DNA of 63,929 bases, counting the filler, from Reclinomonas americana ATCC 50394 (taxonomy: Eukaryota): the NCBI GenBank assembly GCA_048213135.1. It is 20 parts of 20 records of this genome, joined end to end, with 100 filler letters (N's around TTAATTAATTAA, not from the genome) between each part and the next. Parts side by side here need not be neighbours in the genome. Positions count along the whole stretch, not along the records: positions 4,704 to 15,048 come from AFZH01021549.1; 19 more parts are not named here. The stretch is one strand, 5' to 3'. Made by a program: the position numbers and the translations under genes. Shown here piece after piece: positions 1,923-21,100 of this stretch (positions are counted from its first letter, which is position 1; the number at the start of each line of letters is the position of its first letter). The notes under the pieces are model-generated. The model made no database searches. It saw only the letters and a list, made by a program, of their open reading frames with translations, and was not told the origin of the DNA.

Positions 1923-2117
1923 TTACTGTGCGGCGATGTGTTCCCACGTGACGCTGTATGCACCAGCACCCTTCTGCATGTCCTGGTAGAAGTCCCATCC
2001 CTGATCGCGGTTGGTGAAGATGCGCTCGTGCGTCGCACCCCTCTCCGCGACGGATCGCCAGGTGACGCGATAGTTCAGACTCGCGTCTTCAATACCACTG
2101 GTTGGCTCGTGCTGCAT
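1923..2117 (-). CDS. Small hypothetical protein (64 aa)
   Basis: AAGGAG 7 nt upstream of ATG (MQHEPTSG...). Confidence 0.55.
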   Translation of the reverse strand: MQHEPTSGIEDASLNYRVTWRSVAERGATHERIFTNRDQGWDFYQDMQKGAGAYSVTWEHIAAQ

Positions 2118-2257
2118 GGCATGCTCCTTGCGTCGTCCGGCAGGAAGATCCACCGGCCTCTTTCTACTGTTCCCGGCTCGCGCGGCGCACGGCCATCCAA
2201 CGGGGTGAGGCAAGTTACGGCCCTTCGTGGCCAAGAGACCCCATGATGGCAACGATT

Positions 2258-2306
2258 GATCGGTGATCGGTGATCGGTGATCGGTGATCGGTGGTTGGTG
2301 GTTGGT
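2258..2306. repeat. Heptamer tandem repeat (GATCGGT)x5 + (GGTTGGT)x2
   Basis: Read directly from sequence; intergenic. Confidence 0.9.
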
Positions 2307-2562
2307 GCATCCGCTATCGGCCAGCGAAATCGTCCGTGCATCAAGGACTGACCACGCAGCGCCTGCGTGCACAGGGTCGGTGGGCGAGGCCAACCACGCT
2401 GAGGCAGTGGGCGGCCAGGGGCCGACTTCGGCTGTTCTTGCGTCGAGAGCCACATCCTGGCAGGCTCCGAAGTCCAGGCGATCGGCGGTGTACAGACCGT
2501 GGAGGATCCCCTAGCGAATCCGGTGGCATCACCTACTCACGCTGGCTGCCCGTCATGTGAAC

Positions 2563-3516
2563 TCATGCGATTACGTCGTCATGCCACGGGCCCATGTACA
2601 CCAGGAGGGAATTCGGCCGAGCGGGCTTCCCGTGGAGCATTGGCGCGTGACCGACCAGGCCCTGACGCAATGCCGTAGTCTCCGGTAGCTCTCGGTCAGG
2701 CCGCATAAATCGCTTGCCTCCCGCGTAGTCAGCGCGGGTGGCATCGTCGTCCGCCACCACGGTCGCGCCACTGAGCTCCTCGACGCACACCACGATGTTC
2801 GAATACCGACCGAGCGGATCCGAGGCGAGGCCCAAGAGGATGACGGGGTTTGCAGATCCCGCTGCTGTGATGACATGGTCGAAAGCGCGCTTGTTCATTG
2901 GCCACACTTCGTGCGCGTTGTCCCAGGCCACCTGGCGAGATGCGCCGGCGAACTGGCCAGTTGAGTCCCGGCCACCCCACACGCCCTTGGAGGAGACGAC
3001 GATGAAATCGCGATTCGCTGGAAGTTCCACCTTTCGGGCCTGATTCACAACGCTCAACGACTCATGCGCTCCGAACACGTAGTCGTGACCGGACACCCGG
3101 TTGATGATGCGGTCAGACTCCGGCATAGGCAGATTTCTCAGGGTGTCGATGAGAGCAGCCTCCACAGCGAACGCCATCTTCTCATCCATGTCTTCGCCGT
3201 CCTTCTTGATTAGCCACTGAACCACTGGTTCAGCACCGGCATCGCGGATCTCCTTCACCCGATCCCGGACGGTGGACCTCTCTCGCGCTTTTTCATTGAG
3301 CAGCGCAGCGCCGTTGACCGAGTTCGTGGTCAGGGACTCCTCGACGGCGATCTCCGCTTCGCCTTCCGGCAGCTCGGTCACTGTTTCCGGAGACACGGAA
3401 AGGTGTTGCCAAGTCCGATTGCCGGTACCCTTCCCGATGTAGAACGGCCAAGTGGAGCGGGGGTCGATGAGCTTGTACACGTAGTACCGCTTGGATCGCT
3501 TCTTGAGCGTGGTCAT
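2563..3516 (-). CDS. GIY-YIG nuclease, LEM-3-like N-terminal domain
   Basis: YYVYKLIDPR..PFYIGKGTGNR..QH; AFAVEAALID; IINRVSGH. Confidence 0.85.
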   Translation of the reverse strand: MTTLKKRSKRYYVYKLIDPRSTWPFYIGKGTGNRTWQHLSVSPETVTELPEGEAEIAVEESLTTNSVNGAALLNEKARERSTVRDRVKEIRDAGAEPVVQWLIKKDGEDMDEKMAFAVEAALIDTLRNLPMPESDRIINRVSGHDYVFGAHESLSVVNQARKVELPANRDFIVVSSKGVWGGRDSTGQFAGASRQVAWDNAHEVWPMNKRAFDHVITAAGSANPVILLGLASDPLGRYSNIVVCVEELSGATVVADDDATRADYAGGKRFMRPDRELPETTALRQGLVGHAPMLHGKPARPNSLLVYMGPWHDDVIA

Positions 3517-4277
3517 GGTGATTTCTCAATCTGATTGGAGTCGGAGAACAACGGGCATTTGCTGTTCCGGCGAGCTTCGTGGGTGGCGCCTTCTCCTGGT
3601 TCAGGAGCGCTGCGCATTCGGATTCTTCCATCTCAGCGACTCGGCGTCGGAGTGTTTGTCATCCTTGCTCACGCCGCAAGCCTCGCAGTCACCGCTTGGC
3701 GGTGCAGCCACGGGGTTCCCAGTCGCCGCGCTTGGGTTTCACACGAGTCGGCAACGCTAGTGGGTTCAAGTTGCAGCGTTTCCGCCACCACGAAGCCCCG
3801 AATCTCGTTCAAACGGCCGGGGTGCGGTTCTTTGTCAGGCCGATCTGGGGTGCGGTAACGCAGGGGTGGGGCCCTTCGACCGAGATTTGGGAGGGCGCGA
3901 TGATCGTCGCAAGAATCCCGGACGACGCTATACCCCTGCAGATTCCTTCAAGGGGTCGAGGGAGCGACCGCAAGGCTCAAGCTAGCGCCGATCATCCTGT
4001 GACCTCACGATTTTCGGGGAGGAACAATCAGGGGTTATCGCGGGATAGCTGAAGCTGCGGATAGGCCCCATCAGCGCTGTTTTTCTTTGTCGCAGGCTTA
4101 TCGAAGATGCGCTCGAATACGCGGAGTAGATGCGGGGTCTAGATCAGTCTGAGAGATAGCGAGGCCAGCTTGTGATGTCCGCTGACCGGTCGTTGCGCGT
4201 CACACGCACAGTGTGAATCGCTACGCTACGTCCAACACGTCGAGCCCCCCTCGGCGAACGATCTACACCTTGACCGG

Positions 4278-5421
4278 TTACCTCGAGAATGTGTGTGTCG
4301 GCGTATAGAGTGCGGCCCTTCCGGAGCTGCGCTCTACGACGCGAGCTGCGAGTCGTGCGAGGCTCGCGGCTCGCTTGTCCTCACTTTCGGCGGATGGCAC
4401 CCAGCGAACTTGTTCGGCGCCGCGAGGAAGGGCCTCGAGCAGCCGTGTGACGAAGGAGGGCTCAATGGATTCGGCATACGCGATTCGGCCCCCCAAACGG
4501 AGGCGTAACGTGTCTGGAAGCACACGAGCCCGATGTGCATGAGACTCAAGGCCGTAGCGGCCGATGTAGTAGAGCTCCTGCCGAAGTTGCCTCTTGAAGG
4601 GCCNNNNNNNNNNNNNNNNNNNNNNNNNNNNNNNNNNNNNNNNNNNNTTAATTAATTAANNNNNNNNNNNNNNNNNNNNNNNNNNNNNNNNNNNNNNNNN
4701 NNNGGGGGAGTCTCGGGCGATCATTTTCTGACGTCGAAAGACCGGTCACATACAGGGGCTGTCCATACTTCAGCGTCCGCACCTTCCCCAGGTTGATCTC
4801 GTGTCCGTGCTTCTCGCTCATGCGGATCATCTCCGCAGACACGTCGAAGGGCATGCTCCCGGAAAACGTGATGTCGTCGGCGTATCGCGTCACTGAAAGC
4901 CCGCGGTTACTGGCGAGTGCGACTAGATCTGCGTCGAAAACCGCCATGGCTACGTTCGCCATGGCTGGACTGGTGGCGAAGCCGGTGGGTAGCTTCCCGT
5001 TCACGGTTGACAGTCGGGCAAGCATCTCGGCGACGACCTCGTGGAATCCGTACTGACACAGCCCCCGGACGATTGCTTGCCTGTCGATGTGGCCGAAGAA
5101 GGACTTCAAGTCGAAGCGTTGAAGGTAGCGGTTTCCGACGTGTGGAACTGCGTTCTGGAGGATCGATCGCCCACGAACATAACCGGTCACATGTGACGGG
5201 AGGTCAATACTCACGCCCGTGAGTAGAGCAAGCACTCTACGGTGGATGTTCTTCAAGGATTCGCTAGTGGGGCGCGTCACTTCCCGCGGTTTGCCGCCGC
5301 GGTCGAGCATGTACCGCTCGACAAGACGGGATCGATCCAATTGATCGGCGTAGTTCTCAAGCTGTTCTTGCGTAGCTCCAAGGAACGGCTCTAGCTGTCG
5401 CAGGGTCAACACGAAGGACAC
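4278..5421 (-). CDS. Retron reverse transcriptase (~347 aa), interrupted only by the artificial linker 4604-4703
   Basis: NAVPH (retron region X, NAxxH), FDLKSFF, LPTGFATSPAMAN, RYADD, YVTGL (region Y, VTG). Removing the linker gives an in-frame join ...DRPRLP-R-PFKRQLRQELYYIGRYGLESH...GRIAYAESIEP. GTG 5421 is preferred over ATG 5445 because the latter lies inside the ncRNA. Confidence 0.93.
4604..4703. other. Artificial contig linker N44-TTAATTAATTAA-N44 (first of 19)
   Basis: Identical six-frame-stop spacer recurs throughout the window. Confidence 0.99.
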
Positions 5422-5425
5422 TGCC

Positions 5426-5514
5426 GAGGTCCGGGGGCTCATCATCCCTGACTAGTAGTGGACCGTAAAATCACAGACGCGACTCGCGCCCCGAATGCTT
5501 GCTCCCCGGACCTC
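5426..5514 (-). ncRNA. Retron msr-msd non-coding RNA (predicted, 89 nt)
   Basis: Perfect 11-bp inverted repeat GAGGTCCGGGG/CCCCGGACCTC (5514-5504 with 5436-5426). The 5' arm is followed by AGC (candidate branching G at 5502). Two adjacent small hairpins (5490-5476, 5476-5463). Lies directly upstream of a retron RT. Confidence 0.75.
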
Positions 5515-6193
5515 ATAGTAACTCTATTCCTTTGCGTGCGGACTGGTGAAGGCGTCGATCGAAGTCGATCAAATGCGCGAGGTGAACGTCCAGTCCATGG
5601 TTGATCCGCGACTGCTCAAACGGTCTCGGACTCGCGAACAGAGCCATGCTCGACAGCGCAAGGACGTAGTCGACTAGTGCGAGGGCGGGCGCAGCTTTCG
5701 TGCCGATCTGTGTGTGGACGTGAAGTTCGACTCCAGCCACGTTCGATAGATCATCACACGCGACCTCGACGATTGCGGCGTACAGGCCATCCATCCTCGA
5801 CTCTTCTTCGAACACGAACAGAATCTCAGATGTTCGGTAACGCAGAACTATGTTGCGCACGAGCGTGTAATACATGTTGATCATGAGCGTCACGTCGTCG
5901 ACGGCGGACGCGCGTCGTGAGAAAGCGACGTGCGCTCGGAAGTCCATCGATCGGAAGGCCTGAACGAATGCTTGTCGGATGGTGTCATTGTCATCCGCGT
6001 GGTGAAACCCGCGGGTCGCGAACTCCGTGCGCTTGTCCGACTCGTGCCAATAGACCCCATCTGCGAGAACGTCGCCGTATGCGGCGATGACCTCCTGCTC
6101 CAGGACCGCGGCGTCAGGACTCACGACTGCGCCGACCAGAATGCCCTGTGAGGTCGCGTGGGTTCCGGACTCGTCGAGAAACACGGTGATCAT
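5513..6193 (-). CDS. DUF3800-family (RNase H-like fold) protein, putative retron effector
   Basis: N-terminal VFLDESG, central GFH and FVFEE, C-terminal LALVDY; stop codon overlaps the ncRNA 5' arm. Confidence 0.8.
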   Translation of the reverse strand: MITVFLDESGTHATSQGILVGAVVSPDAAVLEQEVIAAYGDVLADGVYWHESDKRTEFATRGFHHADDNDTIRQAFVQAFRSMDFRAHVAFSRRASAVDDVTLMINMYYTLVRNIVLRYRTSEILFVFEEESRMDGLYAAIVEVACDDLSNVAGVELHVHTQIGTKAAPALALVDYVLALSSMALFASPRPFEQSRINHGLDVHLAHLIDFDRRLHQSARKGIELL

Positions 6194-6199
6194 GCCCCG

Positions 6200-6205
6200 A
6201 GAGTA
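6200..6205 (-). promoter_or_regulatory. -10 box (TACTCT) of a probable leaderless transcript for the retron operon
   Basis: TANNNT hexamer 6 nt upstream of ATG 6193; no SD sequence. Confidence 0.55.
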
Positions 6206-6350
6206 CCGAAACCCGAAGGATCCGGTTCTTAGCGCGGCAGCGGCCTAACGGCGCTTCCAAGGCGTCAGCCACCCTCACTGCGTGCGAGATCTCCTGCCGC
6301 CCGGCTGAGCGAATGGCGGCGCGTCCCAGGCGCCCCCTACGATGAGGCTC

Positions 6351-7496
6351 ATGACTGGCGACGAACAGCGGAATGCGAAACGCATCAAGCTGACCGGTGC
6401 CCGCTTCGAGGGAGGACGGCTCCCCGTCGACTCGCTGGTGGAGCTCGAGCGCTACCAGCGTGCCGTGCAACTCATGGCGGAGCATGAGTGGCGCCGCGAG
6501 CACCCTGGCGAGATCCCGCCCGCTGAGATCACCGAGGCCGTCAGCCTCGCGATCGAGCGAATCGAAAAGGGCAGCGCCGACATCTTCCTCGCCTTCGAGC
6601 AGCACGCTGTCTATGAGGAGTACCAGGCCAGCGCCCAGGACGCGGTTGACTCCACGATCGAAGCTGCGTACCTCGGGCTTGAACTTCCCGACCTCCCCGA
6701 AGAAGTCGGAGACGAAGTGCGGGAGACGCTCGCCGAGATCGGCGAGACCTTGCAGTCAGGTCAGTCGATGCAGTTCTTCGTCGGAGATCCGGGTGCCGAA
6801 CCGGTCGAGATCACGATCGAGACGCGCCCTGCCGCCGCCGAGCGCCTGATCCTCTTCACGTTCTTGCAGGCTCCCGCTCCGAAGCCTGAGACCGGCATCA
6901 CCCGCGAAGTCACGAGTCTCGTCGCACGTGTGACTGTCATCGATGCCGAGCACATGAAGTACGAGCTCAACAGCGAAGCGTACGGACTCATCCATGGACG
7001 CTATCGTGACAACCCGGAGATACTCGACGCTCTCCGCGAGGTGGTCAACTCGACAAGCGACGGTCCTCTGACCCGCATTTTCGGGCAGCTTCGATACAAG
7101 GCCGACAAGCCATGGTCTTTCTGGACGACGACGAGGATCGAGCGGGTCGAGTTCGACGACACTGACTGGGGTAGGTCACTGGCCCGATACGCTGCACTCC
7201 CGGCCGCGTGGGCTGGCGGGCAAGGCGAGCAGATCAGTTCGATCGCACTCGACGCGACACAAGCGCTGATGCGGCTGATGGGGGCGAGCGCACAGGCTCC
7301 CGCAATGGCACCCACCGAAGACGGCGGCGTCTTGCTCGAGTGGACCGATCAATCTCGGATCCGTTCCGTCGAGATTCTCGAAGACGGCACGTTCGAACTT
7401 TTCAGCATGTCTCGTGACGAGCACCGCGGACGGCAGACCGAGACGATCGATGTCTCGGAAGCCGCCTCGTTCGTGAGGGAGCGAACCCATGACTGA
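6351..7496 (+). CDS. Hypothetical protein (~381 aa), first gene of a coupled two-gene module
   Basis: Long ORF; TACGAT at 6338-6343 suggests a leaderless start at ATG 6351; C-terminal LPAAWAG..IS..P..APTEDGGVLLEW motif. Confidence 0.8.
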   Translation: MTGDEQRNAKRIKLTGARFEGGRLPVDSLVELERYQRAVQLMAEHEWRREHPGEIPPAEITEAVSLAIERIEKGSADIFLAFEQHAVYEEYQASAQDAVDSTIEAAYLGLELPDLPEEVGDEVRETLAEIGETLQSGQSMQFFVGDPGAEPVEITIETRPAAAERLILFTFLQAPAPKPETGITREVTSLVARVTVIDAEHMKYELNSEAYGLIHGRYRDNPEILDALREVVNSTSDGPLTRIFGQLRYKADKPWSFWTTTRIERVEFDDTDWGRSLARYAALPAAWAGGQGEQISSIALDATQALMRLMGASAQAPAMAPTEDGGVLLEWTDQSRIRSVEILEDGTFELFSMSRDEHRGRQTETIDVSEAASFVRERTHD

Positions 7497-7962
7497 CGCT
7501 CCTGATCTCGAGCTCGCAGAAGGCGAGACGCTCCTTGTCGATGCAGATGAGTTGGCCCTGCGTCAGATCACAGAGTGGATGGTCCTCGACGGTACGATCC
7601 TCACTCACGTCTTCGGGCCGTCCAACGCCGACAACGGGAAGCCCTCGTACTCACGCGGGTCGGTCGTGGACGCGCAGTCGGCCCGCGATTGGCACAGCAC
7701 CCGCAGCACCGCCAGCCGGTCGACCGGTGTCTGGGCTGTGACGGTCGGGGAAGTTCTTGCGGCGGGGCGCCATGTGATCGACGACAGCGGCGCGCCCGAA
7801 GTGCCCGGGGTCGAACGCGCTCCCGGGCATTGCTACGTTGACTTCCGCGGACTGCCCAAACCGGAGATCAAGTCGATCCGCTATCTCCTCTGGCAGCGCG
7901 CAATGGATCGCGGTGAGATTCCCACCGACGAGCCTCTTCCGGACGGGCATTTAATCGCCTGA
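7489..7962 (+). CDS. Hypothetical protein (157 aa), possible ADP-ribosyltransferase-like fold
   Basis: 8-nt overlap with the upstream gene; LRQ...F.P...D.GKPSYS...GVWAVTV...GHCYVDF pattern. Confidence 0.6.
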   Translation: MTDAPDLELAEGETLLVDADELALRQITEWMVLDGTILTHVFGPSNADNGKPSYSRGSVVDAQSARDWHSTRSTASRSTGVWAVTVGEVLAAGRHVIDDSGAPEVPGVERAPGHCYVDFRGLPKPEIKSIRYLLWQRAMDRGEIPTDEPLPDGHLIA

Positions 7963-7977
7963 GATGCAGCGGACGAT

Positions 7978-8424
7978 TCACTTTTCGTGTGACGGCTGAA
8001 GAGACTGCCGGATTTCTCTCAGTACGGCGCTGACCGCGAGTTGAGCTTCGAGGGCGTCCTTCTTGTAGTCGGGCATCTCGGGGTCGTCGTGCGCGGCTTG
8101 CAGACGCGTGTCGTCGCCGACGCTCTCTTCCCACAGGTTCGGGAGACGCTCACACCCGAGAGCTCCGATCAAGGTGAGAGCTTCGGCGCCCATCTTCCTA
8201 ACCTCGACCGCGTCGGTTGATCCACCCGGTTCGGGTTGTCGAGGAGTTTCGTGAGCCTCTGCAATTCGAACACGAGATGGTGTCTGCCGCAGGGCTTCGC
8301 GGCGGTCCTCAGTGGCCAGCAGTGCCGCGGCGGCTCGGTCGTCCTCGGCTATCTTCTGGGCGTTTCTGCGGTCCTTGGCAGACACGACGAGCGCCACGAT
8401 TGCCGCGGCGGCTGCGGCGATCAC
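7978..8424 (-). CDS. Membrane-anchored hypothetical protein, possibly with two compensating frameshifts near 8225-8285
   Basis: Hydrophobic N-terminus followed by a helical charged region. Confidence 0.45.
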   Translation of the reverse strand: MIAAAAAAIVALVVSAKDRRNAQKIAEDDRAAAALLATEDRREALRQTPSRVRIAEAHETPRQPEPGGSTDAVEVRKMGAEALTLIGALGCERLPNLWEESVGDDTRLQAAHDDPEMPDYKKDALEAQLAVSAVLREIRQSLQPSHEK

Positions 8425-15026: not shown

Positions 15027-15240
15027 CACGCTCAAGCGATGGCTGAACNNNNNNNNNNNNNNNNNNNNNNNNNNNNNNNNNNNNNNNNNNNNTTAATTAA
15101 TTAANNNNNNNNNNNNNNNNNNNNNNNNNNNNNNNNNNNNNNNNNNNNCTAGTCGACTTAGTTTCCGTACCTACGTACGAAGGAACGTTACGTTAGTTAG
15201 TTGCGCGCGCCCTCTGTCCACGCTCAAGCGATGGCTGAAC
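15027..15240 (+). repeat. 22-bp direct repeat CACGCTCAAGCGATGGCTGAAC (15027-15048 and 15219-15240) on either side of a linker
   Basis: Exact match seen. Confidence 0.9.
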
Positions 15241-20915: not shown

Positions 20916-21100
20916 GGCGGATGTACGGTACAGCAGACGGATCGACCAGAAGAAGGTTGCTCAGGTCGACACGCTCACAGCGCTAGGTACTTCAGGCATT
21001 NNNNNNNNNNNNNNNNNNNNNNNNNNNNNNNNNNNNNNNNNNNNTTAATTAATTAANNNNNNNNNNNNNNNNNNNNNNNNNNNNNNNNNNNNNNNNNNNN

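Follow-up and report, generated by a model that had tools for sequence, protein, structure and literature searches.

An 89-nt structured RNA element, a candidate type VII retron non-coding RNA (ncRNA), was examined at positions 5426–5514 on the minus strand of a stretch of DNA from the Reclinomonas americana ATCC 50394 assembly (GCA_048213135.1). The whole stretch analysed, 63,929 nt long, is referred to here as the window, and all coordinates are window positions. The element lies between a gene for a DUF3800-family protein and one for the reverse transcriptase (RT) of a retron; type VII retrons are an anti-phage class found in bacteria. The contigs that make up the window are linked by 19 artificial spacers of the form N44-TTAATTAATTAA-N44 (e.g., 4604–4703, 15049–15148, and 21001–21100; counted over the window), which are not biology. 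The spacer at 4604–4703 falls within the RT gene, such that the N-terminal 247 amino acids (aa) are encoded at 4704–5445 (minus strand) and the C-terminal 108 aa at 4278–4603 (minus strand) in the next contig of the chain. The contig ends at 4603 and 4704 abut in frame (L-P-R-P-F) to give an RT of 355 aa in total, as in Plantibacter flavus VKM Ac-2504 (locus L002); because these ends meet exactly within the gene, the interruption is an assembly artefact and not a gap.

The RT open reading frame (ORF) matched Pfam RVT_1 (3e-14) and PADLOC retron RT models (1e-41 to 5e-46). Altogether, 58 PADLOC RT families matched, and the best 25 of the 58 were retron RT models; for the N-terminal 247 aa, the top model was RT_VI (5.4e-46), and RT_VII-A2 scored 1.4e-41. 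The translation carries the motifs NAXXH (NAVPH), YADD (RYADD), and VTG (YVTGLS), of which NAXXH (region X) and VTG (region Y) are given as retron RT signatures in Mestre 2020 (PMC7736814; this and the other publications named below are cited for their accessible portions). The upstream gene (5513–6193, minus strand) is an ORF for a 226-aa protein that matched the PADLOC model DUF3800_VII (E = 2.4e-14), the type VII retron accessory or effector family; the protein had no Pfam family at E ≤ 0.01. Its residues D7, E8, E129, and D175 are invariant across 37 relatives, and these acidic residues fit the DEED site described for DUF3800 by Mestre 2020, where the site is likened to that of RNase H2. 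Type VII-A2 is characterised there by a separate DUF3800-family gene beside the RT, with a DE motif near the N-terminus and a DEED-type site, and the window gene agrees with this. The TGA stop codon of this gene (5515–5513) shares two bases with the start of the 5′ arm of the element, and the gene order DUF3800 followed by RT is common to the window and every type VII-A2 locus found.

The element is bounded by a 5′ arm at 5504–5514 (a1-like) and a 3′ arm at 5426–5436 (a2-like, and also RT codons 3–6), which are 11 nt each, 100% complementary, and separated by 67 nt; the pair probabilities of this closing stem are 0.97–1.0 (about 1.0 for the 5′ arm). The folding energy of the 89-nt RNA was −41.7 kcal/mol, compared to −30.05 ± 3.4 kcal/mol for 200 dinucleotide shuffles (z = −3.43, with one shuffle as good). 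Within the arms lie, in 5′ to 3′ order on the minus strand, a linker (5491–5503) that includes G5502 and a CAUUC able to pair with the GGAUG of the RT ribosome-binding site and start, hairpin 1 (5476–5490), which has a 6-bp G+C stem and an AGU loop and is the most conserved module by comparison, and a weak second hairpin with a tail (5437–5475), which together form the only possible template. The second hairpin (UGUG/UACG) has a probability of about 0.35. A Shine-Dalgarno sequence (~5446–5449) and the candidate RT start codons (5445–5443 or 5442–5440) are located inside the tail, and alignment with L002 makes the ATG at 5442 the more likely start. The segment AGGGAUGAUGAGC, part of the assumed template, is at the same time the ribosome-binding site and start of the RT; in the window fold this region pairs with the linker, leaving a free stretch of about 27 nt, second hairpin included. 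A search of 2000–8000 against Rfam 15 (cmscan, E ≤ 10) returned nothing at 5426–5514, and three chance-level matches elsewhere.

The first-pass annotation, made on the window alone, had read a retron locus here, and the RT motifs, the PADLOC matches, and the DUF3800_VII neighbour agree with that reading; its sequence letters and its two 11-nt perfectly complementary arms were likewise borne out. It had also placed an A-C mismatch inside the arms, followed by a G opposite a G, and in this respect it was wrong, as the minimum-energy fold bulges A5503 and pairs G5502 with C5437 and C5501 with G5438, the 3′ side holding five C's. Of the two adjacent hairpins that it drew, hairpin 1 is the one best supported by comparison, whereas the register of the second differs from that of the second hairpin in the relatives L001 and L002. 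Its suggestion that covariation be sought in DUF3800-RT homologues proved fruitful, since a small inter-gene element with a covarying closing stem is conserved among them, as described below.

A large protein collection contained 26 relatives of the window DUF3800 protein, mostly from Microbacteriaceae. Two of these, a Lysinibacter metagenome-assembled genome (L001) and P. flavus (L002), have DUF3800 proteins with 56% and 54% identity to that of the window. By blastn, the window and L001 matched best over 5604–5411 (76%), and conservation was much stronger in the inter-gene stretch than in the coding DNA; blastn showed no conservation with either relative before the DUF3800 gene or beyond the RT. 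The 760-nt stretch downstream of the RT (3517–4277) has no long ORF on the RT strand, and no nucleotide similarity to the RT-downstream regions of L001 or L002 was detected (blastn, E ≤ 1e-3). The stretches 3517–4277 and 6194–6350, which had been named at first pass as places to which a cDNA might map instead, thus show no nucleotide conservation with either relative. The arms and hairpin 1 are almost identical among the window, L001, and L002, and the 15 letters of hairpin 1 are the same in the window, L001, and the Brevundimonas type VII-A1 loci. The second hairpin changes in sequence yet still pairs (UGAU/AUCA in L001 and GAGAUC/GAUCUU in L002), and the 3′ arm codons CGG and ACC are unchanged in both relatives despite the availability of synonymous codons. 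Three close strains had 8 variable sites in 5300–5650 and none in the element, where about 2 would be expected (chance about 0.1), numbers too small to support an inference. Plasmid and phage collections gave no match to the DUF3800 protein by tblastn, and a metagenome scan gave three distant N-terminal DUF3800-like matches only (L003–L005), beside which an RT hidden Markov model (HMM) found no RT and which were therefore set aside.

The distribution of the element was then extended to other retron loci. A broad DUF3800 alignment (A2) was too divergent for a locus scan. Two more DUF3800-RT pairs (L008 and L009) were obtained by searching 401 genomes from the family of the P. flavus genome (G002), and a scan with an RT alignment gave 80 retron loci, in which a partner gene was then sought with a DUF3800 HMM. 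The gene was present in L011 (Streptomyces), in two Flavobacterium loci (L020, from F. frigoris PS1, and L023), in a Ferruginibacter locus (L022), and in a Pedobacter locus (L029); in L014 (Brevundimonas diminuta ATCC 11568), DUF3800 is fused behind the RT. PADLOC typing was done on 40 of the 86 RT ORFs. Eight of the 40 matched RT_VII-A2 or RT-DUF3800_VII-A1 best (L008, L009, L011, L014, L020, L022, L023, and L029), with RT_VII-A2 as the top model for L008, L009, and L011, and the remaining 32 were of types III-A, XIII, X, II-A, or XI. The element is directly 5′ of the RT in all eight loci typed as VII-A2 or VII-A1. These loci share a layout of a 10–19 bp closing stem, a 5–17 nt linker, hairpin 1, a short hairpin 2, and a tail, and the sequence of the closing stem differs between lineages but stays complementary. 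Hairpin 1 generally has 6–9 bp with a loop of the G-A-N-U-C type (apex G-A-N-U-(Y)-C).

The L014 element precedes the fused gene, and its hairpin 1 has the same letters as that of the window. A protein-guided scan added four further VII-A1 loci, three more from Brevundimonas and one from Sphingomonas folli (L094), giving an element upstream of the fused gene in five of five VII-A1 loci; between L094 and L014, the arms and hairpin 2 differ through compensating changes. A second protein-guided scan yielded 32 loci around the Bacteroidota-type RT, 23 with DUF3800 upstream and 9 without. All 23 DUF3800-RT loci carry the element: 22 were found by the covariance model R2 described below (18 of them seeds or copies of seeds), and a Saccharibacteria locus (L113) was recognised by its fold (z = −4.67) and by a second model, R1. 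The nine RT loci without DUF3800 had no element match at E ≤ 0.01, with one of them (L111) ending at the RT 5′ end. Carriers span Actinobacteria, Bacteroidota, Cyanobacteria, and candidate-phyla bacteria, as well as Alphaproteobacteria in the form of RT-DUF3800 fusions, and the element is ~65–100 nt across copies. Of 23 loci (the window and 22 VII-A2 loci), 13 have a DUF3800 stop codon that overlaps the 5′ arm by its first 1–2 bases, 5 have the stop inside the arm, and in the last 5 a gap of 7–47 nt separates the two.

Structural conservation was measured in several ways. A MAFFT alignment of all lineages (A4) was out of structural register, and therefore covariance models and our own scripts were used; RNAalifold recovered hairpin 1 only from alignment A9. 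For the closing stem, the two sequences flanking hairpin 1 were paired with each other, and the energy of this duplex was compared to 500 dinucleotide shuffles per locus. The window duplex was better than all 500 of its shuffles. Across the 11 loci, the number of shuffles that equalled the native duplex was 45 in L002 and 14 or fewer in each of the other 10, and Fisher's method across nine independent lineages gave p = 2.4e-11. A cruder statistic, the longest contiguous stem, was not significant for L020 (232/1000) and L022 (559/1000) because their stems contain bulges. Model R2 was built from 18 AT-rich seeds, and model R1 from the window, L001, and L002 only. In A11, an alignment of 19 distinct AT-rich copies fitted to the model structure, 88.9% of cells paired, compared to 79.4% when shuffled (0 of 500 as high) and 30–44% with slid partners. 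The covariation score of A11 was 0.351 vs 0.200, with changes on both sides in 10 of 17 pairs, and in 6 of the 9 pairs of helix 1 (the closing stem). Hairpin 1 was paired in 98.6% of A11 cells, and in the Bacteroidota relatives its stem has changed to A-U pairs by covariation. The conserved letters are those of the hairpin 1 apex and the arm ends, and hairpin 2 and the tail are variable. R2 gave exactly one match per genome in three whole genomes, and no match in 150 other Flavobacteriaceae genomes. R1 found the VII-A1 elements (24.5 and 22.2 bits), Pedobacter L029/L117 (19.2 bits), and the Saccharibacteria locus L113 (16.3 bits), all at full length and at the expected site, and nothing else at E ≤ 1 in 31 kb.

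These data demonstrate a conserved, covarying structure made up of an a1/a2-like closing stem, hairpin 1, a second hairpin that is short and variable, and a short tail. The element is always immediately 5′ of the RT, with DUF3800 either as a separate upstream gene or fused behind the RT, and since it stays at the RT 5′ end irrespective of where DUF3800 is, it occupies the place of msr-msd in retrons. The combination of a conserved hairpin 1 apex and arm ends with a variable hairpin 2 and tail is the pattern that would be expected of a recognition part followed by a template part. Altogether, we favour, at a probability of about 0.6, a reading of the 89-nt element as the cognate RNA of a type VII-A2 retron that is composed of a DUF3800 gene, this ncRNA, and an RT; the RT would copy a very short complementary DNA (cDNA) from it. 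The two halves of this interpretation differ in strength: it is highly probable that the element is the cognate RNA bound by the RT, and slightly more likely than not that it is reverse-transcribed into a short cDNA.

In the mechanism proposed, hairpin 1 is probably the recognition hairpin of the RT, by analogy with the msr hairpins recognised by retron RTs, and the closing stem would hold the ends of the RNA together. The RT would then copy what lies between hairpin 1 and the 3′ arm, a short segment of 24–39 nt in the copies examined, into a cDNA of at most ~40 nt in the window (~27 nt if the linker-tail helix forms) and of ~23–33 nt in the relatives. The RNase H-like DUF3800 protein might sense or act on the resulting RNA-DNA hybrid, a role that is plausible given its acidic residues. 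Because the window clade has its RT start within the element, and its DUF3800 stop within the 5′ arm, translation and ncRNA folding would be mutually exclusive for each molecule.

A second short hairpin is present in most folds of the relatives. Downstream of hairpin 2, a motif rich in pyrimidines and centred on ACU is loosely conserved (CCACUACUAGUC, CCACUUGCUUC, and UUACUAUCUACC; window 5452–5463, L014 2637–2647, and L020 ~2680–2692), and some tails hold short internal repeats, such as ACUACUA and CUAUCUAUC. Pairing of 3 nt between the hairpin 1 loop (AGU) and the tail (ACU) was considered and set aside, as its register is not constant across copies.

Several results weigh against the element being a reverse-transcribed retron ncRNA. 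In the window, hairpin 1 is absent from the minimum-energy fold and has a pair probability of about 0.25, and forcing it costs just 1.3 kcal/mol (−40.4 kcal/mol). There is no long msd stem in the window element or in any relative examined, an absence that the first-pass annotation had predicted from the window. The same annotation had taken G5502 as the branch point, and here the comparison went the other way: G5502 is replaced by A in the closest homologue, L001 (alignment A5, column 12), and the AT-rich copies are without any G from the arm end (UAA) through the A/U linker to hairpin 1. Among the sequences compared there is thus no conserved G adjoining the 5′ arm, and two defining msr-msd features, this G and the long msd stem, are missing. 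A branch at G5502 is very improbable; the branch may instead be within the 5′ arm, at its conserved GGG, or at the first G of hairpin 1. With respect to the models, the fitting of A11 to the model structure biases it towards pairing. R1 with filters off gave L011, L008, L022, and L009 only 8.8–11.9 bits, within noise. R2 missed the window element (scanning the entire window without filters gave 0 matches at E ≤ 10, and a local match of 4.1 bits was confined to hairpin 1, at 5476–5490), and it also missed L001, L002, L008, L009, L011, L014, and L094. Because R2 fails on the G+C-rich copies, the G+C-rich and A+T-rich groups are joined only by the modest R1 matches, gene order, and architecture, and the proposed unity of the class rests on gene order, architecture, the hairpin 1 apex, and partial model links, and not on one model that finds every copy. 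Lastly, a census of 163 retrons (Khan preprint) reports, in its accessible text, almost no reverse-transcribed DNA (RT-DNA) from clade 3 or from clade 4, to which type VII belongs; among the retrons tested were Mestre-783 and -789 (VII-A1) and Mestre-803 and -807 (VII-A2). The RTs of this type may make a very short cDNA, a hybrid that does not leave the RNA, DNA on induction only, or no DNA at all.

The census result, together with the lack of both a conserved branch G and an msd stem, would be in keeping with a structural or regulatory RNA that the RT binds but does not copy, for example a scaffold for RT-DUF3800 assembly or an RNA antitoxin, with an RT that is idle at rest or makes untemplated or protein-primed DNA. 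The conserved parts, the hairpin 1 apex and the arms, are also those that a protein-binding RNA would keep. However, the RT retains YADD, NAXXH, and VTG; the arms, the msr-like hairpins, and the variable stretch make up a canonical retron RNA minus the msd stem; and the tail is variable in sequence, as templates are. Moreover, the census worked with different ncRNA boundaries: its table gives no sequences for the ncRNAs, and its donor site for Mestre-803 (194;256) implies a predicted RNA far longer than the type VII element. An RNA of this structural kind is therefore considered unlikely, though it is the alternative taken most seriously here.

The position of the element across the junction of two genes raises another explanation, a cis-acting translational device in which the stem couples or throttles RT translation to that of DUF3800, or serves as an operator for RT autoregulation, with no template role. 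Two features of the loci count for this and against a retron ncRNA, namely that the DUF3800 stop overlaps or is inside the 5′ arm in 18 of 23 loci (the window and 22 others), and that in the window the Shine-Dalgarno sequence and ATG are within the element, the 3′ arm forms RT codons 3–6, and the linker is able to pair with GGAUG; in L008 and L094, moreover, the start codon follows the 3′ arm by 0–2 nt. Such coupling sits poorly with the five VII-A1 loci, which carry the element without an upstream gene to couple, and with the variable spacing of the 3′ arm and the start codon, the latter being inside the element in the window, 17 nt downstream in L014, and ~28 nt downstream in L011. Furthermore, a plain occluding stem requires neither a second hairpin nor hairpin 1, whose apical loop persists across phyla, and a purely translational role is accordingly rated distinctly unlikely. 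A chance hairpin or an intrinsic terminator of the DUF3800 gene has a negligible probability. A consensus scan did flag hairpin 1 with GUGAUUUUAC (5475–5491, minus strand) as terminator-like, one site where 1.3 were expected by chance, and a T run also follows the 3′ arm of L009; however, the T run after hairpin 1 is not kept in L001 and L002, on which ground the terminator reading was rejected, the element is conserved with covariation across phyla, and it also precedes fused genes that have no gene before them. The cognate ncRNA of a type VII retron, copied into a short cDNA, remains the favoured interpretation.

Canonical retron ncRNAs are roughly 150–250 nt long, and the name of a retron gives the length of its multicopy single-stranded DNA (msDNA), which is 48 nt for Ec48. 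Compared to the canonical msr-msd of Retron-Eco1 (Ec86) and Retron-Eco6 (Ec48) as presented in Mestre 2020 (PMC7736814), the type VII element is alike in lying on the same strand immediately 5′ of a retron RT, in its terminal inverted repeats, in having one or two short hairpins after the 5′ arm, and in the variable sequence before the 3′ arm. It differs in its size of ~65–100 nt, in being without a long msd stem-loop and without a conserved G adjoining the 5′ arm at its inner end, in a template space of at most ~25–40 nt, which is smaller than the 48 nt of Ec48, and, in the window clade, in having the RT start inside the RNA.

The 5′ half of the type VII element is similar to the msr portion of certain canonical retrons, and a counterpart may be found in type III-A retrons. 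Hairpins of at least 6 bp with a G-AGU(U)-C loop occurred 12 times in 34.9 kb upstream of retron RTs, compared to 10 times in 977 kb elsewhere, and 4 of the 12 were upstream of type III-A RTs (RT_III-A, PDLC02942), in L024, L063 (near 226), and L069 and L071 (near 2570). These loci share with type VII a G+C-rich or long-stemmed hairpin with a G-AGU-C loop upstream of the RT. In L024, the only one examined closely, a second short hairpin follows directly and 18-nt inverted repeats enclose both, but this RNA (140–379, ~240 nt) has two long internal stems (17 and 15 bp) before the 3′ repeat. The type VII element therefore looks like the canonical-looking msr-msd layout of L024 with the long stems removed, to judge from the two sequences.

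Other defence RTs offer further parallels. The type VI Retron-Sen3 (preprint 10.64898/2026.04.27.721009) had no msr-msd in 2020, and a non-canonical conserved RNA was later defined for it by comparison; unlike the type VII element, it yields single-stranded DNA of ~112 and 145 nt from an extended transcript, and its partners are a small toxin and a helix-turn-helix protein rather than DUF3800. DRT2, DRT9, and DRT10 are described, in the portions of those reports available, as defence RTs, each working with a small ncRNA of its own that holds a short template; however, they belong to other RT lineages and use rolling-circle, homopolymer, or telomerase-like synthesis, and there is no sign of repeat synthesis in the type VII loci.

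The surroundings of the retron are also noteworthy for the defence genes that they may contain. A PDC-M32A/B pair flanks it at 6342–7962 (plus strand; 1.4e-32 and 7.9e-19), and a PD-T4-3-like GIY-YIG protein is encoded at 2563–3516 (minus strand; 2.6e-15), past the 760-nt non-coding stretch. The retron is thus flanked by candidate defence genes, and the region resembles a defence island. In addition, nine single proteins were encountered in which DUF3800 is N-terminal and the RT C-terminal (P0045, P0049, P0050, P0052, P0056, P0058, P0059, and P0062, of 615–665 aa, and P0032, of 649 aa). This order is the reverse of that described for VII-A1, and it is not among the VII subtypes named in the accessible text of Mestre 2020 (PMC7736814). 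The linker of P0032 (G-R-A-R-V-A-P) could be an in-frame translation of hairpin 1, which would amount to read-through of the ncRNA. A scan of viral contigs for such N-terminal DUF3800-RT fusions found none.

For RT clades 4–6, the accessible text of Mestre 2020 (PMC7736814) gives no consensus RNA, just "sequence conservation in the vicinity", and the 2026 preprint (10.64898/2026.04.27.721009), as far as its available text goes, still counts VII-A1 and VII-A2 as types for which no msr-msd has been identified; a full-text literature search found no description of a type VII ncRNA. The retron classification has been without an ncRNA for several types since 2020, and the type VII element would fill one such gap. 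A defined, conserved RNA of ~65–100 nt shows which RNA, which hairpin, and which arms to test, and it points to a very short DNA. As a tentative generalisation, held with somewhat less than even confidence, split and fused type VII retrons alike may use a minimal ncRNA of ~65–100 nt from which the msd stem has been lost, and an ultrashort cDNA (~10–40 nt) or RNA-bound hybrid may be read or cleaved by DUF3800 as a defence switch; if true, such an ultrashort cDNA or hybrid would account for the near-absence of RT-DNA from this clade in the retron census. A compact scaffold for engineering is possible only if cDNA synthesis holds. Were the element indeed reverse-transcribed, the lower bound on the size of retron RNAs and cDNAs would move down, and a retron would be linked to a dedicated RNase H-like partner.

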